The notes beneath the pieces are model-generated. The model did no database searches. It saw only the letters and a program-made list of their open reading frames with translations, and was not told where the DNA came from. A program made the translations under genes and the position numbers. A stretch of DNA of 64,000 bases from Eubacteriales bacterium (GTDB lineage Bacteria; Bacillota; Clostridia; Oscillospirales; CAG-382): contig JAZNZY010000021.1 in the NCBI GenBank assembly GCA_045595165.1, positions 51,382 through 115,381 of the forward strand, read 5' to 3'. The first letter of the stretch is position 1. Each line of letters opens with the position of its first letter. Shown here one piece after another: positions 5,451 to 60,662 of this stretch.

Positions 5451-5775
5451 GCGTTTGCGCGGAGCGCAACATCATTGATGCGAAGCATCACATCGTTTGC
5501 ACGAAGTGGAACAAATCACGCCGTAGGCGTGTATGGAATCCGCAACTTGTTGCGGCATGGAATCAAGGCGGCGCCGTGTATGGAATCCGCAGCTTGTCTG
5601 CGGTATGGAATCAACACGAAGTGTTGAATGTAATCAATCCGAAGGTGAATACACGCTGACGCGTGATGCCATACGCCTAACGGTGATTCCATACACCCTG
5701 CGGGTGATTCCATGCCAATCCTTATGCACCCCAAAAGCGCAAAGCGTTTTCGGGGGACCCCGCTTCGGATTGGAT
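5451..5775. repeat. mini-hairpin array D1 (variable short palindromes separated by TATGGAAT / ATTCCATA octamers) 3' of tRNA-Ala
   Basis: Octamers at 5532, 5556, 5579, 5604 and 5627 (TATGGAAT type), then 5665, 5686 and 5707 (reverse-complement type). Hairpins include 5476-5490, 5517-5531, 5540-5555, 5587-5603, 5612-5626 and 5694-5706. Confidence 0.85.
5727..5762 (+). repeat. Rep-C copy (CACCCCAAAA-hairpin-TTTTCGGGGGACCCCG) nested in the loop of the last D1 hairpin
   Basis: caccccaaaagcgcaaagcgttttcgggggaccccg sits between ccaatcc (5715-5721) and ggattgg (5768-5774). Confidence 0.8.
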
Positions 5776-31657: not shown

Positions 31658-32133
31658 GACTTGGTTATTTACCGCAGAACAAAACGCGAAAAAGTAAAAA
31701 AAGATGTACCGCGAAACCATCACTTTTTTCGCTGACATTTGTTCGAAGCACTATCAATGTAGGAATTCGTGAATACACGAATTCCTTTTTATTTCGCGTT
31801 TTTAAACGTTTTTAGTCGGTGGGCAGTACCTTTGTACAGCCCCACACGCCTAAAAATCCTTTTCTGCGCTAAATACCCGGCGTCCTACCTTCTCCTGTTT
31901 TATATATCAAAAACCACAGCTTTTTACCGCAGACCGAAACGCAAATGAAAATTATACCGTAATTACCGATGCGAGAGATCTTGCTTTTTCTCTCGCATTT
32001 TTGTTTTGTTTATAGGTAGGAATTTGTAAAAAACAAATTCCTTTTATTTTGCGTTTCTACGCATTTTCGCTCGGGAGGCAGTAGAATACTACAGCTCCCC
32101 TCTCGCAAAAAAGCGTTCTGCGCTAAATATCCT

Positions 32134-32168
32134 CGGGGTCCCCGAAAACGCCGCGCGTTTTTGGGGTG
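32134..32168 (-). repeat. Rep-C copy
   Basis: cggggtccccgaaaacgccgcgcgtttttggggtg. Confidence 0.8.
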
Positions 32169-32302
32169 TTCATGCGTCCTACCTTCTCCTGTTTTATATA
32201 TCAAAAACCGTGAGTTTTACCTTCTTCTACGGTAGTTTGGCGGGTTTGAGAAAACATAATGTTTTTGGTCTGCTGACCAAAAACTTCCATAGTTCATCGT
32301 TG

Positions 32303-32336
32303 CGGGGTCCCCAAAAATGCCTGCATTTTAGGGGTG
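32303..32336 (-). repeat. Rep-C copy inserted within a heptad arm
   Basis: cggggtccccaaaaatgcctgcattttaggggtg interrupts ...ccatagttcatcgtt | cttctagttcatcgtttatagtt. Confidence 0.8.
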
Positions 32337-32362
32337 CTTCTAGTTCATCGTTTATAGTTTTA

Positions 32363-34897: not shown

Positions 34898-34977
34898 AAT
34901 CACCCCAAGAAGCCTTGCGGCTTCTCGGGGACCCCGTCAATCACCCCAAGAAGCCTTGCGGCTTCTCGGGGACCCCG
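34898..34977 (+). repeat. tandem duplication (2 x 41 bp) of Rep-C
   Basis: aatcaccccaagaagccttgcggcttctcggggaccccg occurs at 34898-34936 and 34939-34977. Confidence 0.9.
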
Positions 34978-34984
34978 ACAACAA

Positions 34985-36775: not shown

Positions 36776-37086
36776 CTTCGCAGATCGAAACGCAAAAAAC
36801 ATTGATACGTAATAACAAATGCGAGAGATTTTAGTTTATCTCTCGCATTCTTGTTTTCTTAATAGGTAGGAATTTGAAAACAAATTCCTTTTTATTTTGC
36901 GTTTCTATAAATTTTCAGTCGGGGGGCAGTAGATTTCTACAGCACCCCGCGCCTGAAAATTCATTCTGCTTTGTTTATACAGCTTCCTGCTTCAATCAGA
37001 CTTTCAGTTCTACAGACGGAATGTATCGAAAACAATTACACGGTTTTTTGCTCTGCAAAAAACTTCCTCATTCCTCATTCCTCATT
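36776..37086 (+). repeat. Rep-A copy 3 (ends in an A/T-clamped hairpin plus TTCCTCA heptad arm)
   Basis: Modules in order: cttcgcagatcgaaacgc; gcgagaga hairpin; taggaatttg..caaattcct plus T-run; gcgtttct; ttttcag..ctgaaaa hairpin; attcattctgctttgtttatacagc; ttttttgctctgcaaaaaa; cttcctcattcctcattcctcatt. Confidence 0.8.
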
Positions 37087-37115
37087 AAAAAACCTCCGAT
37101 TTCTCGGAGGTTTTT
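37087..37115. terminator. bidirectional terminator
   Basis: aaaaaa-cctccga-tttc-tcggagg-ttttt. Confidence 0.8.
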
Positions 37116-37121
37116 AAAGTA

Positions 37122-39796: not shown

Positions 39797-39833
39797 ATCA
39801 CCCCAAAAACGCAAGACGTTTTCGGGGACCCCG
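39797..39833 (+). repeat. Rep-C copy
   Basis: atcaccccaaaaacgcaagacgttttcggggaccccg, 18 nt after the stop codon. Confidence 0.8.
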
Positions 39834-39842
39834 ATCAACTTT

Positions 39843-40212
39843 GCAGATCGAAAAACGCGACAGATGAAATAACGGTTTTCGTTCACCCGTAGGGACAGAC
39901 GTCCCGGCTGTCCGTATCAAAATAAAAATGTAGGAATCCGTTTTTTAACGGATTCCTTCTTTATTTTTTATCGCGTTTTTCTATAAATTTTTACTTCGCT
40001 AGCTGTAGATCACTACAGCACGCTCGTAAAAATTCATTCTGCTTTGTTTATACAGCTCCCCGCTTCAGTTGACTCTCGCTGCTACAGACATTGCGTTTCG
40101 AAAATGATTGTACGGTTTTTTGCCCCGCAAAAAACTTCCGAAATTCATCATTCCTCATTGCGGGGTCCCCAAAAATCCGCAGGATTTTAGGGTGCTTACT
40201 CATTCTTCATTG
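39843..40212 (+). repeat. Rep-A copy 4 (with a nested Rep-C at 40161-40194)
   Basis: Modules in order: tttgcagatcgaaaaacgc; taggaatccg..cggattcct plus T-run; gcgtttttct; tttttac..gtaaaaa hairpin; attcattctgctttgtttatacagc; ttttttgccccgcaaaaaa; cttccgaaattcatcattcctcatt; [Rep-C]; cttactcattcttcatt. Confidence 0.8.
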
Positions 40213-41847: not shown

Positions 41848-41909
41848 TGTTTTTTGCTTCACGCAAAAAATTACCGAAGTTCATAGTTCATAGTTCATCG
41901 TTCATAGTT
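41848..41909 (+). repeat. Rep-B half element (A/T-clamped hairpin plus GTTCATA heptad arm)
   Basis: ttttttgcttcacgcaaaaaa-ttaccgaag-ttcatagttcatagttcatcgttcatagtt. Confidence 0.75.
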
Positions 41910-41942
41910 AAAAAATCCGCAGATTTACTCTGCGGATTTTTT
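41910..41942. terminator. bidirectional terminator (serves the DUF1667 operon on the minus strand)
   Basis: aaaaaatccgcag-atttact-ctgcggatttttt. Confidence 0.8.
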
Positions 41943-42284
41943 CTATACGTTTCTCGTTGCGATAACGTCAATACCCGTATCGCAGACGTTGGGGATAACC
42001 ACGTCCCCTATTTTTACGGGGGCAACCAAGGTAACCTCTCTTATTGCCGCCATGATATCAAACATTTTGCCCTTGGGCACAGCGCCCTTGGTACGGACGG
42101 GACATCTGCATAGATCGCCCTTTTCCACCTTTACGGTAGATGTGATAACACGGGTGGGCGAGGTAAGCTCGGTTTTGCCGTACGCCGCGCCTCTGGGACA
42201 GTTGTTGCCCGTAACCTCAAAGGTTTTTTCATCCACGGTAAGACGGCATCCCTTGGGACACACGATACATACTATATTTGCCAT
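41943..42284 (-). CDS. DUF1667 domain protein
   Basis: Start moved to MANIVCIVCPKGCRLTVDE... with a GGAGGAGG RBS. Cys-rich N-terminus is typical of DUF1667. The upstream extension is rejected. Confidence 0.8.
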   Translation of the reverse strand: MANIVCIVCPKGCRLTVDEKTFEVTGNNCPRGAAYGKTELTSPTRVITSTVKVEKGDLCRCPVRTKGAVPKGKMFDIMAAIREVTLVAPVKIGDVVIPNVCDTGIDVIATRNV

Positions 42285-45099: not shown

Positions 45100-45885
45100 T
45101 TATTTCTTCTTTTTAATAACAACTACTACCACTACAACTGCGATAACAACTGCTGCGATAACGATACCGATGATAAGACCGGTGTTGCCGCCTTCTTCTT
45201 TATCGGAAGGTTCTTCGGAATTGCCTACTGCGGGAACGGAGGTGTCTTCTTCGGACTCTTCCTTGGAGGGCTCTTCGGAGGGTTCTTCGGAAGGCTCTTC
45301 GGAGGGCTCTTCGGAGGATTCTTCGGGAACTTCCTCGGGAACGTAGTTGGGATCAAGCTCAAAGGTGTTAAAGGTGAGCACTGCACCGTCGCAAGTGAAA
45401 ACAGTGAACTGGGTGATCTCTACGTAGCCGTCTGCGTTTACGCCCACAAGCTCTGCAAGCTGTTCAAAAGAAACAGCGCCCTTGTAGGAACCGGAAAGAA
45501 GGTCGCCGGTGCCGCTTTCGATATTATCGCCCATAAACTTGTGAATGTAGTTGTCGCCGCCGTTAATACGGATGCTGGTCTTACCAATGTCAAAGGAAAG
45601 GTCGTATACAAGGTAGGTGCCTTCGCCAACAAGGATAGGCGCGGGAAGAACTGCGTCTGCCCAAGGCCAGGTTCCTGCTGCAGAGCCGGATACAACGGTA
45701 ACGCCTTCGGTTGTTTCAATGGTAATTTCCGTTCCGTTAACGGGGGTATTTACCCAAAGATCTTTGCAGTTATCGAAGATATCATACTTTTCTTCAATAA
45801 CAACGGGCTCGTCTGCGGAAACGGGAATTGCGAAAAATGCGCAAACGAGAGAAACAATAATAAGTACGCTTAAAAGCTTTTTCAT
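45100..45885 (-). CDS. secreted surface protein, acidic PSEE linker, C-terminal TM anchor
   Basis: Signal peptide MKKLLSVLIIVSLVCAFFAIPVSA. (EEPS)n linker. Tail VPAVGNSEEPSDKEEGGNTGLIIGIV...KKKK. Confidence 0.8.
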   Translation of the reverse strand: MKKLLSVLIIVSLVCAFFAIPVSADEPVVIEEKYDIFDNCKDLWVNTPVNGTEITIETTEGVTVVSGSAAGTWPWADAVLPAPILVGEGTYLVYDLSFDIGKTSIRINGGDNYIHKFMGDNIESGTGDLLSGSYKGAVSFEQLAELVGVNADGYVEITQFTVFTCDGAVLTFNTFELDPNYVPEEVPEESSEEPSEEPSEEPSEEPSKEESEEDTSVPAVGNSEEPSDKEEGGNTGLIIGIVIAAVVIAVVVVVVVIKKKK

Positions 45886-46023: not shown

Positions 46024-47328
46024 TTACTTCTTTTTCTTTGCAACGATAACTACAACTACAACAACTGCAATAACAACTACTGCTACAACGATACCGATGA
46101 TAAGACCGGTGTTGCCGCCTTCTTCCTTATCGGAAGGTTCTTCGGAATTGCCTACTGCGGGAACGGTGGTGTCTTCTTCGGAAGGCTCTTCGGAGGGTTC
46201 GTCGGAAGGTTCTTCAGAGGGCTCTTCAGAGGGTTCTTCGGAGGGTTCGTCGGGCTGTTCAGCGGGAACTGCGTAGTAAACTACTGCGCCGGTTTCGTGA
46301 GTCTGCTCTGCGAAGTTGTAGCCTGCGAAGTATACGATGTCGCCTGCAACGAGAGCTGCGAGAGCTTCTTTGTTTGCAGCAGCTTCGGTGCTTTCGCCGT
46401 GAACTGCGAATGCGATGTCGCCTTCCTGAACGTCTGCAAATGCGAATTCATAGTCGCCGTCTGCAGCCTTAACTTCTACTACGGAGTACTGACCTTCGGT
46501 TTCGGTGGGTCTGAGAAGTACGCATGCGGACCAAGCTACGTTGTATGCAGCGAGGTTGGTGGGATCGGTGATGATGGTGTTGGAATCGGTTACGATAGAC
46601 TTGTTGAAGGGAACGTGCTTAATGAACTTTGCACCTGCGGGAATTTCAACGATAGGCTCGATCTCATTAAGATCTATGGATTCTTCCTGGCTTACTTCGC
46701 CGATTTCAGGACCGCCGGCAGACTTAAGGCTTGCGCCAACCTCGGTAAGACCAACCCATTCCCAGCAAACCTTGACGTCCCAGTCGTTACCGGTCTGACC
46801 GTGAGCGCCCATAAAGAAGGATACGGAAACGTATTTTGCGTTAACGGGAGCAGCGAGGTCGATAACTACTTCGCGCTGGAAGGACTGAGTAATGTCTTCG
46901 ATAGTGCTGTCCATGGTGTAAGAGAATTCGTCGAACGCATTACCGTCTACGGAAGTACCAACGATAAGATCGCCATCGGTAGGAAGACCGATCATAGCGT
47001 TTGCGTAGCAGAACCAGTAAAGAGTAATGGTGTCGATGCTCTGAACGGAATCAAGTTCGAAAACGATGGTGCACTCGGTGGGAGTACCGGTGGTGCATGC
47101 CTTATTCTGAACAAGAAGGATACCGGCTTTGTTAAAGTCACGGGCTGCAGCGTCAGCTTCGGAAAGGATTGCGCCGTCAAAAAGCTGAGCGGGATCGTCA
47201 GATGCGAGAGCTTCAACGTTGTCGCCTTTGAATTCAACGGATACAACGTTTGTTTCTGCTGCTGCGGGTATCAGAAAAAGAACTGAAACGAGAGCAACTG
47301 CGAGAATTGCGCATAAAAGCTTTTTCAT
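46024..47328 (-). CDS. secreted surface protein: discoidin/F5-8-type-C-like domain, unknown domain, PSEE linker, C-terminal TM anchor
   Basis: Start moved to MKKLLCAILAVALVSVLFLIPAAA (ATG 47328), because the promoter -10 at 47371-47376 lies inside the 20-codon ORF-track extension. LFDG...WVGLTEVGA is discoidin-like. The tail is the same as in the 45100 gene. Confidence 0.8.
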   Translation of the reverse strand: MKKLLCAILAVALVSVLFLIPAAAETNVVSVEFKGDNVEALASDDPAQLFDGAILSEADAAARDFNKAGILLVQNKACTTGTPTECTIVFELDSVQSIDTITLYWFCYANAMIGLPTDGDLIVGTSVDGNAFDEFSYTMDSTIEDITQSFQREVVIDLAAPVNAKYVSVSFFMGAHGQTGNDWDVKVCWEWVGLTEVGASLKSAGGPEIGEVSQEESIDLNEIEPIVEIPAGAKFIKHVPFNKSIVTDSNTIITDPTNLAAYNVAWSACVLLRPTETEGQYSVVEVKAADGDYEFAFADVQEGDIAFAVHGESTEAAANKEALAALVAGDIVYFAGYNFAEQTHETGAVVYYAVPAEQPDEPSEEPSEEPSEEPSDEPSEEPSEEDTTVPAVGNSEEPSDKEEGGNTGLIIGIVVAVVVIAVVVVVVIVAKKKK

Positions 47329-47370
47329 AGGGTTTTTTGCTCCTTTAAATAATAATATTTTGGTGAAGTG

Positions 47371-47399
47371 ATTATACACTATTTGCAAGAGAAAGTCAA
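47371..47399 (-). promoter_or_regulatory. sigma-A promoter (TTGACT-17-TATAAT)
   Basis: Minus strand has ttgact (47399-47394), a 17-nt spacer and tataat (47376-47371). Confidence 0.7.
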
Positions 47400-47455: not shown

Positions 47456-48802
47456 TTATCTTTTCTTTTTAACAACAATTACCACTACAACTACAATGGC
47501 AGCTACTGCAATTACAGCTACTACGATACCGATAATAAGGCCTGCGCCGACAACACTTGTCTGTTCGCCGGAAACGGGTTCGGATCCTTCGGTGTCCTCA
47601 TCGGAAACGTCTGCTGCGGGTTCGGATTCATCGGTTGCGGGTTCGGATTCGTCGGTGGGTTCGGATTCTTCGGAGGGCTCTTCGGAAACGTCTTCGGAGG
47701 GCTCTTCGGAAGCTTCGCCGTTATCGGGAGTAGCGGTGTTATCTATAAAGTAAACAACTGCGCCTCTTTCAAAGGACTGTTCCTCAAAATTATAGCCTGC
47801 GAAGGTAACGGTGTCCCCTGCAACAAGAGCGTTGAGCGCAAGTCTGTTTGCCTTGGTGCCGTCTGCATCATCATCGCCGTGAACGGAAAGAACCATATCA
47901 CCCTCTGCCGCATCGGCAAAAACAAAGGTTTCGCTGCCGTTTACCCATTCAACAGCCACTACCTCGTAAACGCCTTCGGTTTCGGTAGGTCTGATAAGTG
48001 CGCAGGAGGTCCACTTAACATTGAAATCCTGCATAGTTGCGGGATCGGTAATGATAGTGTAAGAGCCGGTGGTGATAGAGGTGTTGAACTTAGCGTGCTT
48101 GAGTGCTACGTGTCCTTCGGGAATTTCTACGATAGGCTCGATCTGATCGAGGGGAGTGTTGTCCTCGCTTACTTCCTCATAGCCGCCGTCAAGAACTTCA
48201 TCTACCTCAAGGCCTGCGCCGACTTCGGTAAAGCCGACCCATTCCCAAAGAGGGCACCACCAGTCGCTGTATCCGTGGGGGCCGAATTCAAAGGTAACAG
48301 AAACGTATTTTGCCTTTACGGTCTGACCCAGTCTTATAGTGGTATCAAGCTGAAAGGAGGTATCGGGGTCGGTTTCGCCCTCGAAATCGTATGCGCCGAT
48401 CTCGGTGTAAATGTCGCCGTCTGCGGAATAGCCTATGATAAGGTTATTGTTAACGGGCAGACCGATTATTGCCATGTGATACACGTACCAGGTGATATAA
48501 ACGGTGTCTATATCCTGAAGGGAATCAAGCTCGAAATACATGGTTGCAATGGTGTTTTCGGTATCGTTCATATCGGTGTTCTGAAGCAGAACGATGCCTT
48601 CCTTGGTGAAGTCACTGGCGTTCGCATTTTCTTCGGAAAGGATCTTGTTATCGTAAAGAAGGGTAAGATCTGCTCCTGCGCGAACCTTTACGTCGCCCTC
48701 AAACCAAACCTTGGTTACGTTCGCCTTTGCATCTGCGGGGATAGCAAGCAAAGCGCAAACAACGGCGAGAACGATAAGTACGCTTAAAATTCTTTTTTTC
48801 AT
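47456..48802 (-). CDS. secreted surface protein, paralogue of 46024..47328
   Basis: Signal peptide MKKRILSVLIVLAVVCALLAIPADA. Same two-domain layout. Acidic SEEPSE linker. TM plus a KKKR tail. Confidence 0.8.
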   Translation of the reverse strand: MKKRILSVLIVLAVVCALLAIPADAKANVTKVWFEGDVKVRAGADLTLLYDNKILSEENANASDFTKEGIVLLQNTDMNDTENTIATMYFELDSLQDIDTVYITWYVYHMAIIGLPVNNNLIIGYSADGDIYTEIGAYDFEGETDPDTSFQLDTTIRLGQTVKAKYVSVTFEFGPHGYSDWWCPLWEWVGFTEVGAGLEVDEVLDGGYEEVSEDNTPLDQIEPIVEIPEGHVALKHAKFNTSITTGSYTIITDPATMQDFNVKWTSCALIRPTETEGVYEVVAVEWVNGSETFVFADAAEGDMVLSVHGDDDADGTKANRLALNALVAGDTVTFAGYNFEEQSFERGAVVYFIDNTATPDNGEASEEPSEDVSEEPSEESEPTDESEPATDESEPAADVSDEDTEGSEPVSGEQTSVVGAGLIIGIVVAVIAVAAIVVVVVIVVKKKR

Positions 48803-48833: not shown

Positions 48834-48937
48834 AACGATGAACTATGAACTATGAACTATGAACGAATGGTTGATTTTTGTTCTGCGAACAAAAATCTTC
48901 CGAAGTTCCTCGTTCATCGTTTCTAGTTCCTCGTTTC
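48834..48937 (-). repeat. Rep-B full element B2 (heptad arm - hairpin - heptad arm), within the 5' leader of the 47456..48802 gene
   Basis: aacgatgaactatgaactatgaactatgaacga-atggttg-atttttgttctgcgaacaaaaat-cttccgaag-ttcctcgttcatcgtttctagttcctcgtt. It is the reverse complement of B3. Confidence 0.85.
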
Positions 48938-56445: not shown

Positions 56446-56479
56446 TAAAAAAGAGCAGACTGTGTCTGCTCTTTTTTTT
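56446..56479. terminator. bidirectional rho-independent terminator
   Basis: aaaaa-agagcagac-tgt-gtctgctct-ttttttt. Confidence 0.85.
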
Positions 56480-56582
56480 AACGATGAACTAGAAACGAGG
56501 AACGAGGAACTTCGGAAGATTTTTGTTCGCAGAACAAAAATCAACCATTCGTTCATAGTTTATCGTTCATAGTTCATCGTTT
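56480..56582 (+). repeat. Rep-B full element B3
   Basis: aacgatgaactagaaacgaggaacgaggaa-cttcggaag-atttttgttcgcagaacaaaaat-caaccat-tcgttcatagtttatcgttcatagttcatcgtt. A 57-nt core is identical to the reverse complement of B2. Confidence 0.85.
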
Positions 56583-58686: not shown

Positions 58687-59892
58687 ATGTATATTCTTGT
58701 CGTAAACGCAGGAAGCTCTTCCCTTAAATACCAGCTTTTTGATATGGAGGGGGAAAAGCTTTTGGCAAAAGGTAATGCCGACCGTATCGGTATTGACGGC
58801 GTGCTGGAGCATCAGGTTATAGGTAAAGAAAAGACCGCCACTCCCACTCCCTTCCCCACCCACGCAGACGCTATTAAAAAAGTACTTGAAACACTTGTGG
58901 ATAAAGAAGCAGGCTGTATCGAGAGTATTGATATGATCGGCGCAGTAGGTCACCGCGTAGTACACGGCGGTCCTTGGCTCACCAAGCCCACCCTCGTTAC
59001 CGAGCAGTCCAAGGCTGACCTTCGCAAATGCCTTACCATCGCTCCCCTTCACACCAAGGGACATCTTGAGGGTATTCAGGGCTGTGAAGAGGTTATGCCT
59101 AACGTGCCTCAGGTGCTGGTTATCGACACCGCTTTCCATTCCACTATGCCCGCAAAGGCATACACTTATCCTATCGCATACGAAGTAGCAGAAAAATATA
59201 ATATCCGCCGTTACGGTTTCCACGGCACCTCCCACAGATACGTTTCCGCTATCGCAAACGAATATCTGGGCAAGGAAGACAGCAAGATCGTTACCTGCCA
59301 TATAGGCAACGGTTCTTCCATTTCCGCAGTAAGAGGCGGCAAGTGTATGGACACCAGCATGGGCTTCACTCCCCTTGACGGTATTATTATGGGCTCCCGT
59401 TGCGGCGCCATCGACCCCGCTATCGTTCCCTATATTATGGAAGCAGAGAATATTCCCGCTAACGAAATGGGCAACTGGATGAACAAAAAGTGCGGTCTGC
59501 TGGGCGTTTCCGGCGTATCCTCCGATATGCGTAACCTCCGCAAGGCGCAGGCAGAGGGCAACGAGAGAGCCAATCTTGCATCCGATATTCTCACTTACGA
59601 GATAAAGAAGTTTATCGGCTCTTACGCAGCCGCTATGAACGGTCTGGACTGTCTGGTATTTACCGCAGGTATCGGTGAAAACGATGCGAGAGTAAGAAGC
59701 GAAGTTTGCGCAGATATGGAATTTTTGGGCGTGAAGATGGACGAGGACAAGAACCTTAACTACCGCGATCTTCCCGTTCCCGCAGACGTTTCCGCTCCCG
59801 ACAGCAAGGTGAGAATTCTTGTTATCGCCACCAACGAAGAGCTGGTTATCGCCCGCGATACCGCAGAAATCGTTGCAGGACTTAACAAATAA
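58687..59892 (+). CDS. ackA: acetate kinase
   Basis: MYILVVNAGSSSLKYQLF, HRVVHGG, GFHGTSHRY, FTAGIGEN. Confidence 0.95.
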   Translation: MYILVVNAGSSSLKYQLFDMEGEKLLAKGNADRIGIDGVLEHQVIGKEKTATPTPFPTHADAIKKVLETLVDKEAGCIESIDMIGAVGHRVVHGGPWLTKPTLVTEQSKADLRKCLTIAPLHTKGHLEGIQGCEEVMPNVPQVLVIDTAFHSTMPAKAYTYPIAYEVAEKYNIRRYGFHGTSHRYVSAIANEYLGKEDSKIVTCHIGNGSSISAVRGGKCMDTSMGFTPLDGIIMGSRCGAIDPAIVPYIMEAENIPANEMGNWMNKKCGLLGVSGVSSDMRNLRKAQAEGNERANLASDILTYEIKKFIGSYAAAMNGLDCLVFTAGIGENDARVRSEVCADMEFLGVKMDEDKNLNYRDLPVPADVSAPDSKVRILVIATNEELVIARDTAEIVAGLNK

Positions 59893-60521
59893 TGATAGAA
59901 ACTCTTACTTTTGTTTTTGAGATAATCGGCACGGTGGCTTTTGCCATTTCCGGCGCCATAACAGGTCTTAAAAAGAAAATGGATATTTTCGGCGTGGTAA
60001 TTCTCGCCGTGATAACCGCCGTGGGGGGAGGCGCAATACGGGATATCGTGTTGGGCAATACCCCGCCCATGACGTTCAGAAACCCCGTTTACGCTCTGGT
60101 TGCCGTTGCCACGGGAATACTTACCTTTATCCCTGCGGTACGAAGGCTGGCAGGCAAAAATTCAAAAGTTTTTGATATGTTTTTGCTTATAACCGATTCT
60201 GTGGGGCTGGGCATATTTACTGTAATGGGTATACGCACCGCCATTAACTTAAACCACGGGGAAAACCTGTTTTTGCTGGTCTTCGTGGGAGTGGTTACCG
60301 GTGTGGGCGGAGGTCTGCTTCGTGATATGATGGCAGGCAACACGCCTTACATATTCGTAAAGCACATATACGCATCCGCTTCCCTTGCAGGTGCAGTCCT
60401 TTGCGTGCTTTTGTGGAAGCCCTTGGGCGCAACGGCGGCAATGACGATTTCCGCAGTGGTTGTAATAACCATACGCTTTCTGGCAGCAAGATTTAAATGG
60501 AGTCTGCCGAAAGCGGAATAG
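59892..60521 (+). CDS. trimeric intracellular cation channel (TRIC/UPF0126) family protein
   Basis: Duplicated motif GTVAFAISGA...GGGAIRDIVLG and GVVTGVGGGLLRDMMAG. Confidence 0.8.
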   Translation: MIETLTFVFEIIGTVAFAISGAITGLKKKMDIFGVVILAVITAVGGGAIRDIVLGNTPPMTFRNPVYALVAVATGILTFIPAVRRLAGKNSKVFDMFLLITDSVGLGIFTVMGIRTAINLNHGENLFLLVFVGVVTGVGGGLLRDMMAGNTPYIFVKHIYASASLAGAVLCVLLWKPLGATAAMTISAVVVITIRFLAARFKWSLPKAE

Positions 60522-60527
60522 AAATTA

Positions 60528-60630
60528 AATGAGGAATGAGAAATGAGAAATGAGAAATTAAGGAAGCTTATTGCACCGCGGTGCAAAAAGCAACCATCAT
60601 TCATCATTTATCATTCATCATTCCTCATTA
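60528..60630 (+). repeat. Rep-B full element B4 (AATGAGA / TTCATCA heptad arms)
   Basis: aaatgaggaatgagaaatgagaaatgagaaat-taaggaag-cttattgcaccgcggtgcaaaaag-caaccat-cattcatcatttatcattcatcattcctcatt. Confidence 0.8.
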
Positions 60631-60662
60631 AAAAACTCCCGATTTTATCGGGAGTTTTTGTT
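60631..60662. terminator. bidirectional rho-independent terminator
   Basis: aaaaaa-ctcccga-tttta-tcgggag-ttttt. Confidence 0.85.

Follow-up and report, generated by a model that had tools for sequence, protein, structure and literature searches.

A 64,000-nt stretch of Eubacteriales DNA (contig JAZNZY010000021.1; hereafter the window, in whose coordinates features are given) contains at positions 60525–60632 an element, B4, that belongs to a family of intergenic repeats referred to here as Rep-B. We consider Rep-B to be, on balance, probably a non-coding, high-copy palindromic mosaic repeat of ~100 nt that is non-autonomous and mobile or recombining, resembling repetitive extragenic palindromic sequences and bacterial interspersed mosaic elements (REP/BIME) or foldback-type MITEs (miniature inverted-repeat transposable elements). 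Each element has two arms composed of heptads, and these pair with one another because both are inverted arrays of one motif. The pairing is not due to selection for a long stem; each arm is homogenized separately, and near-perfect arm pairs are, if anything, avoided. The published literature was searched for this repeat family and no description was found; the family is an undescribed intergenic repeat of uncultured ruminant-gut Clostridia/Oscillospiraceae.

The initial annotation had described B4 as a heptad arm, GGAAG, a hairpin, CAACCAT, and a second heptad arm, and this architecture is present at 60525–60632. The element and its immediate neighbors are the following:

60525–60632, + strand: full element B4, a 108-nt imperfect palindrome with T1-type arms
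60528–60561, + strand: B4 left arm, AATGAGG AATGAGA AATGAGA AATGAGA plus the linker AATTAA; period 7, 4.6 copies (Tandem Repeats Finder)
60562–60597, + strand: B4 conserved core, GGAAG, the hairpin C-TTATTG-CAC-CGCG-GTG-CAAAAA-G, and CAACCAT
60598–60629, + strand: B4 right arm, CATT CATCATT TATCATT CATCATT CCTCATT; period 7, 5.0 copies (Tandem Repeats Finder)
60631–60659, + strand: intrinsic terminator abutting the B4 right arm, with a 13-bp stem and a T-rich tail
59892–60521, + strand: upstream gene for a Gly_transporter/TRIC-type membrane protein (PF03458, E = 3.9e-46)

The general form of B4 is (AATGAGR)n on the left, GGAAG, the hairpin, CAACCAT, and (TCATYHT)n on the right. An inverted-repeat search returned it as two arms of 54 nt that are 80% complementary with zero gap between them, a covariance model matched it at 60528–60629(+) with 93.3 bits, and its predicted fold has a minimum free energy (MFE) of −44 kcal/mol (z −9.7). 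Comparison to Rfam gave no match over the whole window at gathering thresholds, nor around B4 at permissive ones, the weak matches that were returned being far below the cut-offs. B4 is located in the 3′ untranslated region (UTR) of the Gly_transporter/TRIC-type gene, between its stop codon and its terminator. That terminator lies outside the repeat proper, yet such terminators are recurrent neighbors of Rep-B.

Two other full copies are present in the window:

56480–56581, + strand: full element B3, T2/T2 arms, core at 56514–56548, covariance model score 97.2 bits
48834–48935, − strand: full element B2, T2/T2 arms, core at 48867–48901, covariance model score 95.8 bits

The core pattern GGAAG-N15-40-CAACCAT has three matches in the window [48867–48901(−), 56514–56548(+), and 60562–60597(+)] versus 0.19 expected by chance, and the covariance model identified exactly three full copies, at 93–97 bits, ~20 bits over the reverse strand. 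The central landmarks are common to B2, B3, and B4. Each of the three folds on either strand to an imperfect hairpin of ~100 nt (MFE −39 to −48 kcal/mol, z −7 to −10). The UTR positions that had been claimed for them are also correct, as judged by our checks of gene calls, terminators, and promoter: B3 has a bidirectional terminator on one side and the stop codon of an opposite-strand DAGK/YegS-type kinase gene on the other, and B2 occupies the 5′ leader of a gene for a repeat-rich protein, between its promoter (48997–48969, TTGACT-17-TATAAT) and its ribosome-binding site and ATG (48802). The genes next to the window copies are unrelated, ordinary housekeeping genes.

The core pattern was scanned over one genome per prokaryotic species, which yielded 94 stretches, nearly all of them from ~10 uncultured Clostridia/Eubacteriales/Oscillospiraceae metagenome-assembled genomes (MAGs), with the main contributing MAGs being from the ruminant hindgut. 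(Loci outside of the window are cited below by their L numbers.) Two matches, one in Shouchella and the other in a MAG without arrays, were chance or unrelated. One contig (210 kb) has 21 copies with the exact core, or ~1 per 10 kb, and the covariance model identified ~150 distinct sites in 645 kb, variant cores included. The nearest relative of the window is an Oscillospiraceae MAG that has ~90% identity to it across 8 kb. The core pattern captured one subfamily only, because variant cores carry different hairpin flanks: we observed GGAAA...CTACCT, GGTAG...GTTTCCA, and GGTAA subfamilies, with variant-core sites at L093 ~1465–1610, L018 6121–6227, and window 41851–41875. A viral scan revealed one copy, with T3-like arms, in a predicted viral contig [L095 4403–4503(−), IMGVR_UViG_3300032167_001249], where it sits directly upstream of a ribosome-binding site; we regard it as uninformative.

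The constrained part of the family is its center. Rep-B has >100 copies, all of them intergenic, with a core of 35 nt and a central hairpin of 24–28 nt. The closing pair is of Watson-Crick type in each of the 52 distinct cores (A-T in 38, C-G in 13, and G-C in one), and the three apical base pairs occur as six complementary variants (TTC/GAA, CAC/GTG, CGT/ACG, CCC/GGG, CAA/TTG, and TCC/GGA), while the loops vary freely. In an alignment of the 43 copies with intact arms, pairing in the hairpin was 99.6%, and 4 of its 11 pairs showed changes on both sides.

The anatomy and subtype statistics of the arms were drawn from 115 unique copies. Outward from the hairpin, both arms consist of a short linker and then heptads of the consensus YHT-NN-TT, with invariant T positions recurring every 7 nt; as written, the left arm is AAYGAGG-rich and the right arm CAT/TAT-rich. 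Three related arm subtypes were distinguished: T1 (..CATT), T2 (..[AC]GTT), and T3 (C[AT]CT[CT]TT). The two arms of a copy belong to the same subtype in 65 of 84 pure-type copies, versus 34 expected, and 19 copies (23%) are discordant; left arms of type T3 are mostly opposite a T1 or T2 arm on the right. Counts of uninterrupted in-frame units peak sharply at four, on the left (55/115) as on the right (64/115), and one arm is absent in ~20 of the 115 copies (~17%). Read inward from either side, ~76% of arms have stop codons in two or three frames (a TGA or TAG each 7 nt), versus 22% read outward.

The distribution of unit number is difficult to reconcile with the arms being ordinary heptanucleotide microsatellites, inverted by chance and generated by polymerase slippage without any identity as an element. 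Heptamers are over-represented among bacterial simple repeats, with slippage proposed as the cause (PMC4692102), and such an origin would account for heptads being more alike within than across arms (see below) and for the occasional long array, such as the 10 units in L059. It would account neither for a mode of four units on both sides nor for the repetition of the complete architecture in >100 copies from several species, in which every array is tied through fixed linkers to the conserved 35-nt core and replacement or inversion happens as a whole block. We therefore consider a microsatellite origin very improbable, and the possibility raised in the initial annotation that the arms are free expansions was not borne out. 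Within the window, every array of at least three units is joined to a hairpin core. Four half copies that had been noted there do exist, at or near the positions first given for them:

32262–32359, + strand: half element, with the hairpin, CTTCC, an array broken by a nested GGGGTCCCC...GGGGTG module (32304–32336), and the array again at 32339–32359
37045–37086, + strand: half element, with the hairpin, CTTCC, (TCATTCC)3, and then a terminator
40117–40159, + strand: half element, with the hairpin, CTTCC, a short T1 array, and then a nested GGGGTCCCC-type module
41851–41909, + strand: half element, with the hairpin, a TTACC-GAA linker, (GTTCATA)4, and then a terminator

All four are composed of the hairpin, a CTTCC-type linker and an array, i.e., the reversed left half of a full element.

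The initial annotation had proposed that the arms change sequence between copies and stay complementary within each, as expected for a selected stem of ~100 nt. In the 43-copy alignment 77% of arm cells are paired overall; per heptad, one position is unpaired in 58–77% of cells and a second in 40–63%, and covariation is confined to the position that defines the subtype (C-G in T2, T-A in T1), at which every heptad switches simultaneously. Among concordant T2 copies, the left arm is 72.4% complementary to its own right arm versus 78.8% to the right arms of other copies, and permutation of the arms gave a complementarity at least as high as that observed in 5000 of 5000 trials. The variable arm positions of concordant copies are anti-correlated between left and right arms, and the unit counts of the two arms are uncorrelated. 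A folding-energy comparison that permits bulges, performed on sampled elements, gave an arm folding gain of −20.2 kcal/mol for real elements versus −24.8 kcal/mol for chimeras with a right arm of the same type (p = 3e-5); the corresponding values were −21.5 kcal/mol for any-type chimeras (p = 0.12) and −9.9 kcal/mol for shuffled arms. Heptad identity is 0.856 within an arm versus 0.750 across the arms of one copy, with 31 of 32 copies showing this difference (p = 1e-6). The proposal is thus correct at the level of the three subtypes and fails copy by copy, where own arms pair worse than those of other copies. A selected ~100-nt stem is not supported, as compensatory change is evident for the 11-bp central hairpin alone and not for the whole structure, and chimeras fold better than real elements.

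These results also bear on the possibility that Rep-B is a selected structured UTR RNA, whose ~100-nt hairpin would serve as a 3′-exonuclease barrier or stabilizer, as a processing site for RNase III or another enzyme, or, through its GAGG-/CCUC-rich arms, as a modulator of translation. The location of the copies is relevant to this. Their intergenic settings are convergent in 35 cases, co-directional in 45, and divergent in only three, a distribution like that of REP-type repeats. Of 230 arm ends, 37 (~16%) abut a terminator stem, at a median gap of 5 nt, and ~23% closely precede a ribosome-binding site and start codon, at a median of 20 nt from the latter. These short distances, as well as the presence of all three window copies within transcription units, the very stable folds, the covariation of the central hairpin, and the retention of the element between the stop codon and terminator of one gene in three species, are what a structured RNA would predict, and a mild orientation bias is in the same direction: ribosome-binding-site neighbors are found 34 times on the right side versus 18 on the left, and in co-directional regions 28 copies are as written versus 17 reversed. 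Yet orientation is not constant. Both orientations are common, one whole element is inverted between flanks that are 97% identical, and both strands fold equally well. Moreover, there is no copy-specific compensation between arms, whose complementarity is below that of random same-type pairings, ~17% of copies lack one arm (including the B4 ortholog in L056), empty orthologous sites exist, and the neighbors are unrelated housekeeping genes with no shared gene class. Taken together, we believe a selected structured RNA to be an unlikely explanation of the family, although one that deserves to be kept in mind. Two more specific RNA-level candidates were set aside: period-7 NAG-triplet sites of the HutP/TRAP type, as UAG/GAG occurs in some heptads only and the elements are genome-wide, and a CsrA or anti-Shine-Dalgarno role for GAGG/CCUC-rich arms, as this would not be general to all subtypes.

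Evidence that Rep-B is mobile comes from orthologous sites. The B3 site has T2/T2 arms in the window, T1/T1 arms at the same junctions in L083 (90% identical), and a 16-nt arm remnant alone in L056. The B4 site of L056 retains the core, right arm and terminator and has no left arm, and that of L083 has another core type, a right arm of three units, and a nested module. The B2 element is absent from the syntenic position in L048. The array and terminator of the 41851 site connect to the hairpin through an inverted CTTCC-type linker in the window and through CAACCAT to a full core in L070, and the 37045 composite (described below) has a T2 array at its end in L061. Similar differences were observed between loci outside of the window. 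L091 and L061 have flanks of ~97% identity between which the whole element, including its arms, is inverted; L059 and L006 have flanks of 95% identity around elements that are entirely different; and a single site is occupied by T2(+) in L016, by a variant-core T1 element in L018, and by T1(−) in L022, and is empty in L041 and L047. Assembly artifacts are an unlikely cause of the inversions, because the arms are ~75% complementary and would not act as exact inverted repeats. The alternative in the initial annotation, a repeated, mobile palindromic DNA element (a cruciform or MITE), is therefore supported, since orthologous sites show absence, inversion, replacement, and nested insertion. At the filled L016/L018/L022 site the stop codon of the upstream gene is inside the first heptad, and the C-terminus of its product is unlike that of the empty-site orthologs.

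In-place inversion of a whole element, as seen at one orthologous site, might also be expected of a DNA-level protein-binding array, in which the heptads would bind a nucleoid-associated protein or a recombinase and the hairpin or a cruciform would nucleate binding, the whole acting as an organizer of local topology or an invertible switch. The fixed number of ~4 units per side, the symmetry of the arms when read outward, the invariant T positions every 7 nt, and the fact that window arrays are never without a hairpin core are all compatible with such a function. A 7-bp period does not fit the helical repeat, however, and three subtypes per genome, with arms of mixed subtype, are ill-suited to one sequence-specific binder. 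In addition, no candidate protein is known and copies lacking one arm persist, and we accordingly view a binding array as improbable.

Rep-B is itself part of a larger mosaic, and window intergenic regions consist of several repeat modules. Two other small hairpin modules are nested in the arms at heptad boundaries. One is a second repeat family, a REP-like hairpin of the form GGGGTCCCC - stem - loop - stem - GGGGTG(NTT), which inserts into Rep-B either at the heptad boundaries of an arm or immediately past CAACCAT. Its copies in the window are:

5727–5761, − strand: second-family repeat
32135–32168, + strand: second-family repeat
32304–32336, + strand: second-family repeat
34901–34935, − strand: second-family repeat
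34942–34976, − strand: second-family repeat
39799–39832, − strand: second-family repeat

Two of these are in tandem at 34898–34979, with a period of 41 nt. We conclude that this family was recently mobile, because L071 and L026 are 98–100% identical save for a 40-nt CCGGGGTTCCCC...GGGGTGG module directly after CAACCAT and one extra heptad; the difference is a recent insertion of the second repeat into Rep-B. The other nested module, AATG-CGACGC-xxxGC-loop-GCxxx-GCTA-AATGAGG, is a small GC-rich hairpin that occurs in T1-type arms only, on either side of the core (L003, L007, L008, L011, L014, L018, L022, L025, L031, L032, L067, L069, L083, and others); none was found in the window.

A composite repeat of ~300 nt is also present, in the window at 31958–32300, 36808–37086, and 39965–40160 (with a partial copy at 31774–31866) and in L061, L074, and L085. 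Several hairpins lie within it (e.g., GCGAGAGATT..ATCTCTCGC and GTAGGAATTT..AAATTCCT), and its end is invariably a half or full Rep-B core; it has GFO/IDH/MocA oxidoreductase genes upstream, promoters downstream, and no Rfam match. The terminators that abut arms look alike (window 37087–37116, 41910–41943, 56447–56477, 60631–60659, and many other loci), being composed of an A-run, xxCCGAT-loop-ATCGGxx or GAGCAGA-loop-TCTGCTC, and a T-run, and may be a further repeated module of the mosaic. B2 is in the leader of one of three tandem paralogous genes [45100–45885(−), 46024–47388(−), and 47456–48802(−), the last being the gene that follows B2] that have 12-nt (4-codon) repeats (TTCTTCGGAGGG on the + strand) and whose "surface protein" products are repeat-rich and share a C-terminal hydrophobic segment.

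If Rep-B is a mobile palindromic repeat, as we favor, its constrained part would be the 35-nt core, that is, an 11-bp hairpin that retains its shape despite sequence change, together with the fixed single-stranded GGAAG and CAACCAT. In REP/RAYT and IS200/IS605 systems a hairpin and an adjacent short motif are recognized on single-stranded DNA (PMC3333891, PMC8266576), and by analogy with these HUH/Y1 transposases the core may be recognized by a structure-specific DNA enzyme acting in trans. Each arm would carry ~4 units of one heptad consensus, making the arms ~72–77% complementary by construction, and tandem duplication or slippage would homogenize them one by one without compensation across the stem. 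The scarcity of near-perfect arm pairs may reflect the instability of long perfect DNA palindromes or of long perfect RNA duplexes. Gain, loss, whole-element inversion, and exchange of subtype at fixed intergenic sites would greatly outpace the divergence of the flanking genes, and the elements would themselves be targets of the second small hairpin repeat. The majority of copies are within apparent transcription units (stop codon-element-terminator, or element-ribosome-binding site) and so are presumably transcribed as long imperfect hairpins; any secondary effects on mRNA 3′-end stability or on translation would then be a by-product, and not the cause, of arm matching.

It is feasible, though we would give this little weight, that the core with its GGAAG/CAACCAT flanks is the substrate of a structure-specific recombinase or transposase that flips, replaces, and perhaps builds elements at fixed sites. 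If so, the clade would possess hundreds of tiny cassettes that can be inverted or replaced, and their orientation would decide whether a neighboring mRNA bears the CAU-rich strand or the GAGG-rich one, in which every frame has stop codons. The outcome would be genome-wide, element-based variation in expression and a new mobilization mechanism for heptad-armed foldback elements.

Several points weigh against our interpretation of Rep-B as a mobile repeat with independently homogenized arms. The subtype concordance of left and right arms is far over chance; it is explained by descent from subfamily master copies, but could reflect some pairing requirement. The mild orientation bias noted above (34 vs. 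18; 28 vs. 17) hints at a strand-specific effect at the RNA level for some copies. A clean target-site duplication was not readable at the filled and empty sites compared: insertion junctions read ...TT/AA... (the slash marking the junction), merging with the A/T runs of terminators, and filled and empty flanks are too diverged to define a duplication. Comparison of orthologous sites with and without the element, as suggested in the initial annotation, thus delivered the empty sites and not the duplication. A tblastn search for a Y1/HUH transposase with two queries, IS200 and IS608 TnpA, found none below E = 0.1 in ~700 kb, which is a weak test, and no parent insertion sequence with the same ends was seen in the 8-kb tiles around elements. 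Finally, the gene calls in the loci are crude open reading frame calls and the census was seeded with the single exact core subfamily.

The family is of interest for several reasons. This very abundant repeat shapes the majority of intergenic regions in a clade of uncultured Clostridia from the ruminant gut and explains why these regions turn over far faster than the genes. It also offers a caution about methods: arms that are complementary yet vary from copy to copy can mimic covariation, which here results from inverted arrays of one motif with subfamilies, and comparison of a copy's own arm with the arms of other copies exposes such false covariation. Rep-B elements could be used as strain-typing markers, are likely break points in short-read assemblies, and are candidate substrates for finding a new hairpin-recognizing DNA enzyme. 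To us the points of most interest are how the elements are mobilized, the inversion of entire elements at fixed sites, and the scarcity of copies whose arms pair well.

With respect to known systems, Rep-B shares several features with bacterial MITEs and related palindromes (Correia/NEMIS, RUP, ERIC; PMC3184786): they are non-coding, ~100 nt in length, have inverted ends, show presence/absence at orthologous sites, and are transcribed as hairpins within mRNAs. Rep-B has terminal inverted repeats (77% of arm cells paired in 43 copies; 80% in B4) and is polymorphic for presence (L041/L047 empty vs. L016/L018/L022 filled; the empty site in L048; the remnant in L056). Typical bacterial MITEs have unique terminal inverted repeats, whereas the arms of Rep-B are internally repetitive. 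Inverted arms made of short tandem subrepeats are a feature of the eukaryotic Foldback elements.

REP/BIME and Rep-B are alike in being high-copy extragenic palindromes whose hairpin shape is kept while the stem sequence varies (PMC3333891, PMC8266576, PMC3733652). Both have fixed short motifs at the foot of the hairpin, form mosaics with other modules, are targets for other insertions, and are sited at gene 3′ ends and inside transcription units. The Rep-B hairpin (24–28 nt) falls within the definition of a REP as a high-copy, extragenic, imperfect palindrome of 20–40 nt. However, the GTAG/CGTC tetranucleotide of REPs (PMC3733652) is missing in Rep-B, in which the flanks are GGAAG/CAACCAT or the variants GGAAA/CTACCT and GGTAG/GTTTCCA, and REPs are without heptad arrays. 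The transposases of REP/BIME elements are the RAYT (TnpA-REP) proteins (PMC3333891, PMC8266576, PMC3733652). Their genes are typically flanked by REPs, and no RAYT was seen in the ~700 kb covered by the weak tblastn test. With no GTAG/CGTC tag, and no demonstrable target-site duplication or parent insertion sequence, Rep-B cannot be filed as either a REP or a classical MITE. An integron attC site was also rejected, as the copies are 2–8 kb apart among housekeeping genes, are in both orientations, and have ends that are not RYYYAAC/GTTRRRY.

Heptamer arrays offer parallels to the arms. As cited in PMC4692102 and PMC5861425, the STRR heptanucleotide repeats of heterocystous cyanobacteria are, as in Rep-B, tandem heptamers in intergenic DNA, and the small dispersed cyanobacterial repeats are very small, form hairpins, and nest inside other repeats, as seen here; both differ from Rep-B in sequence and phylum.

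The closest published analog in kind, with no homology implied, is the GGGAATC-type heptamer arrays of Xanthomonas campestris/axonopodis (Rehm et al., 2015; PMC4692102). Their units are heterogeneous, with some positions fixed and some free, and mostly four in number; ~90% of arrays are intergenic near the 3′ end of the upstream open reading frame and they are rare between divergent genes; and each genome has 70–75 convergent inverted pairs that are stem-loop-capable, with length and presence differing between closely related species (PMC4692102). Rep-B has the same four-unit mode on both sides (55 and 64 of 115), inverted pairs, and a similar distribution among gene settings (35 convergent, 45 co-directional, and 3 divergent). 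The Xanthomonas units differ in being G-rich (GGGANTN) and have been studied as G-quadruplex formers, whereas the Rep-B units (AAYGAKG / YHTNNTT) are without GGG tracts; the description of the Xanthomonas arrays includes no conserved hairpin core at the center with fixed flanks, and the host is of another phylum. Rep-B and the Xanthomonas pairs thus represent two unrelated cases of four-unit inverted heptamer arrays near gene ends, the second of which, reported here, suggests that a general mechanism gives rise to them.

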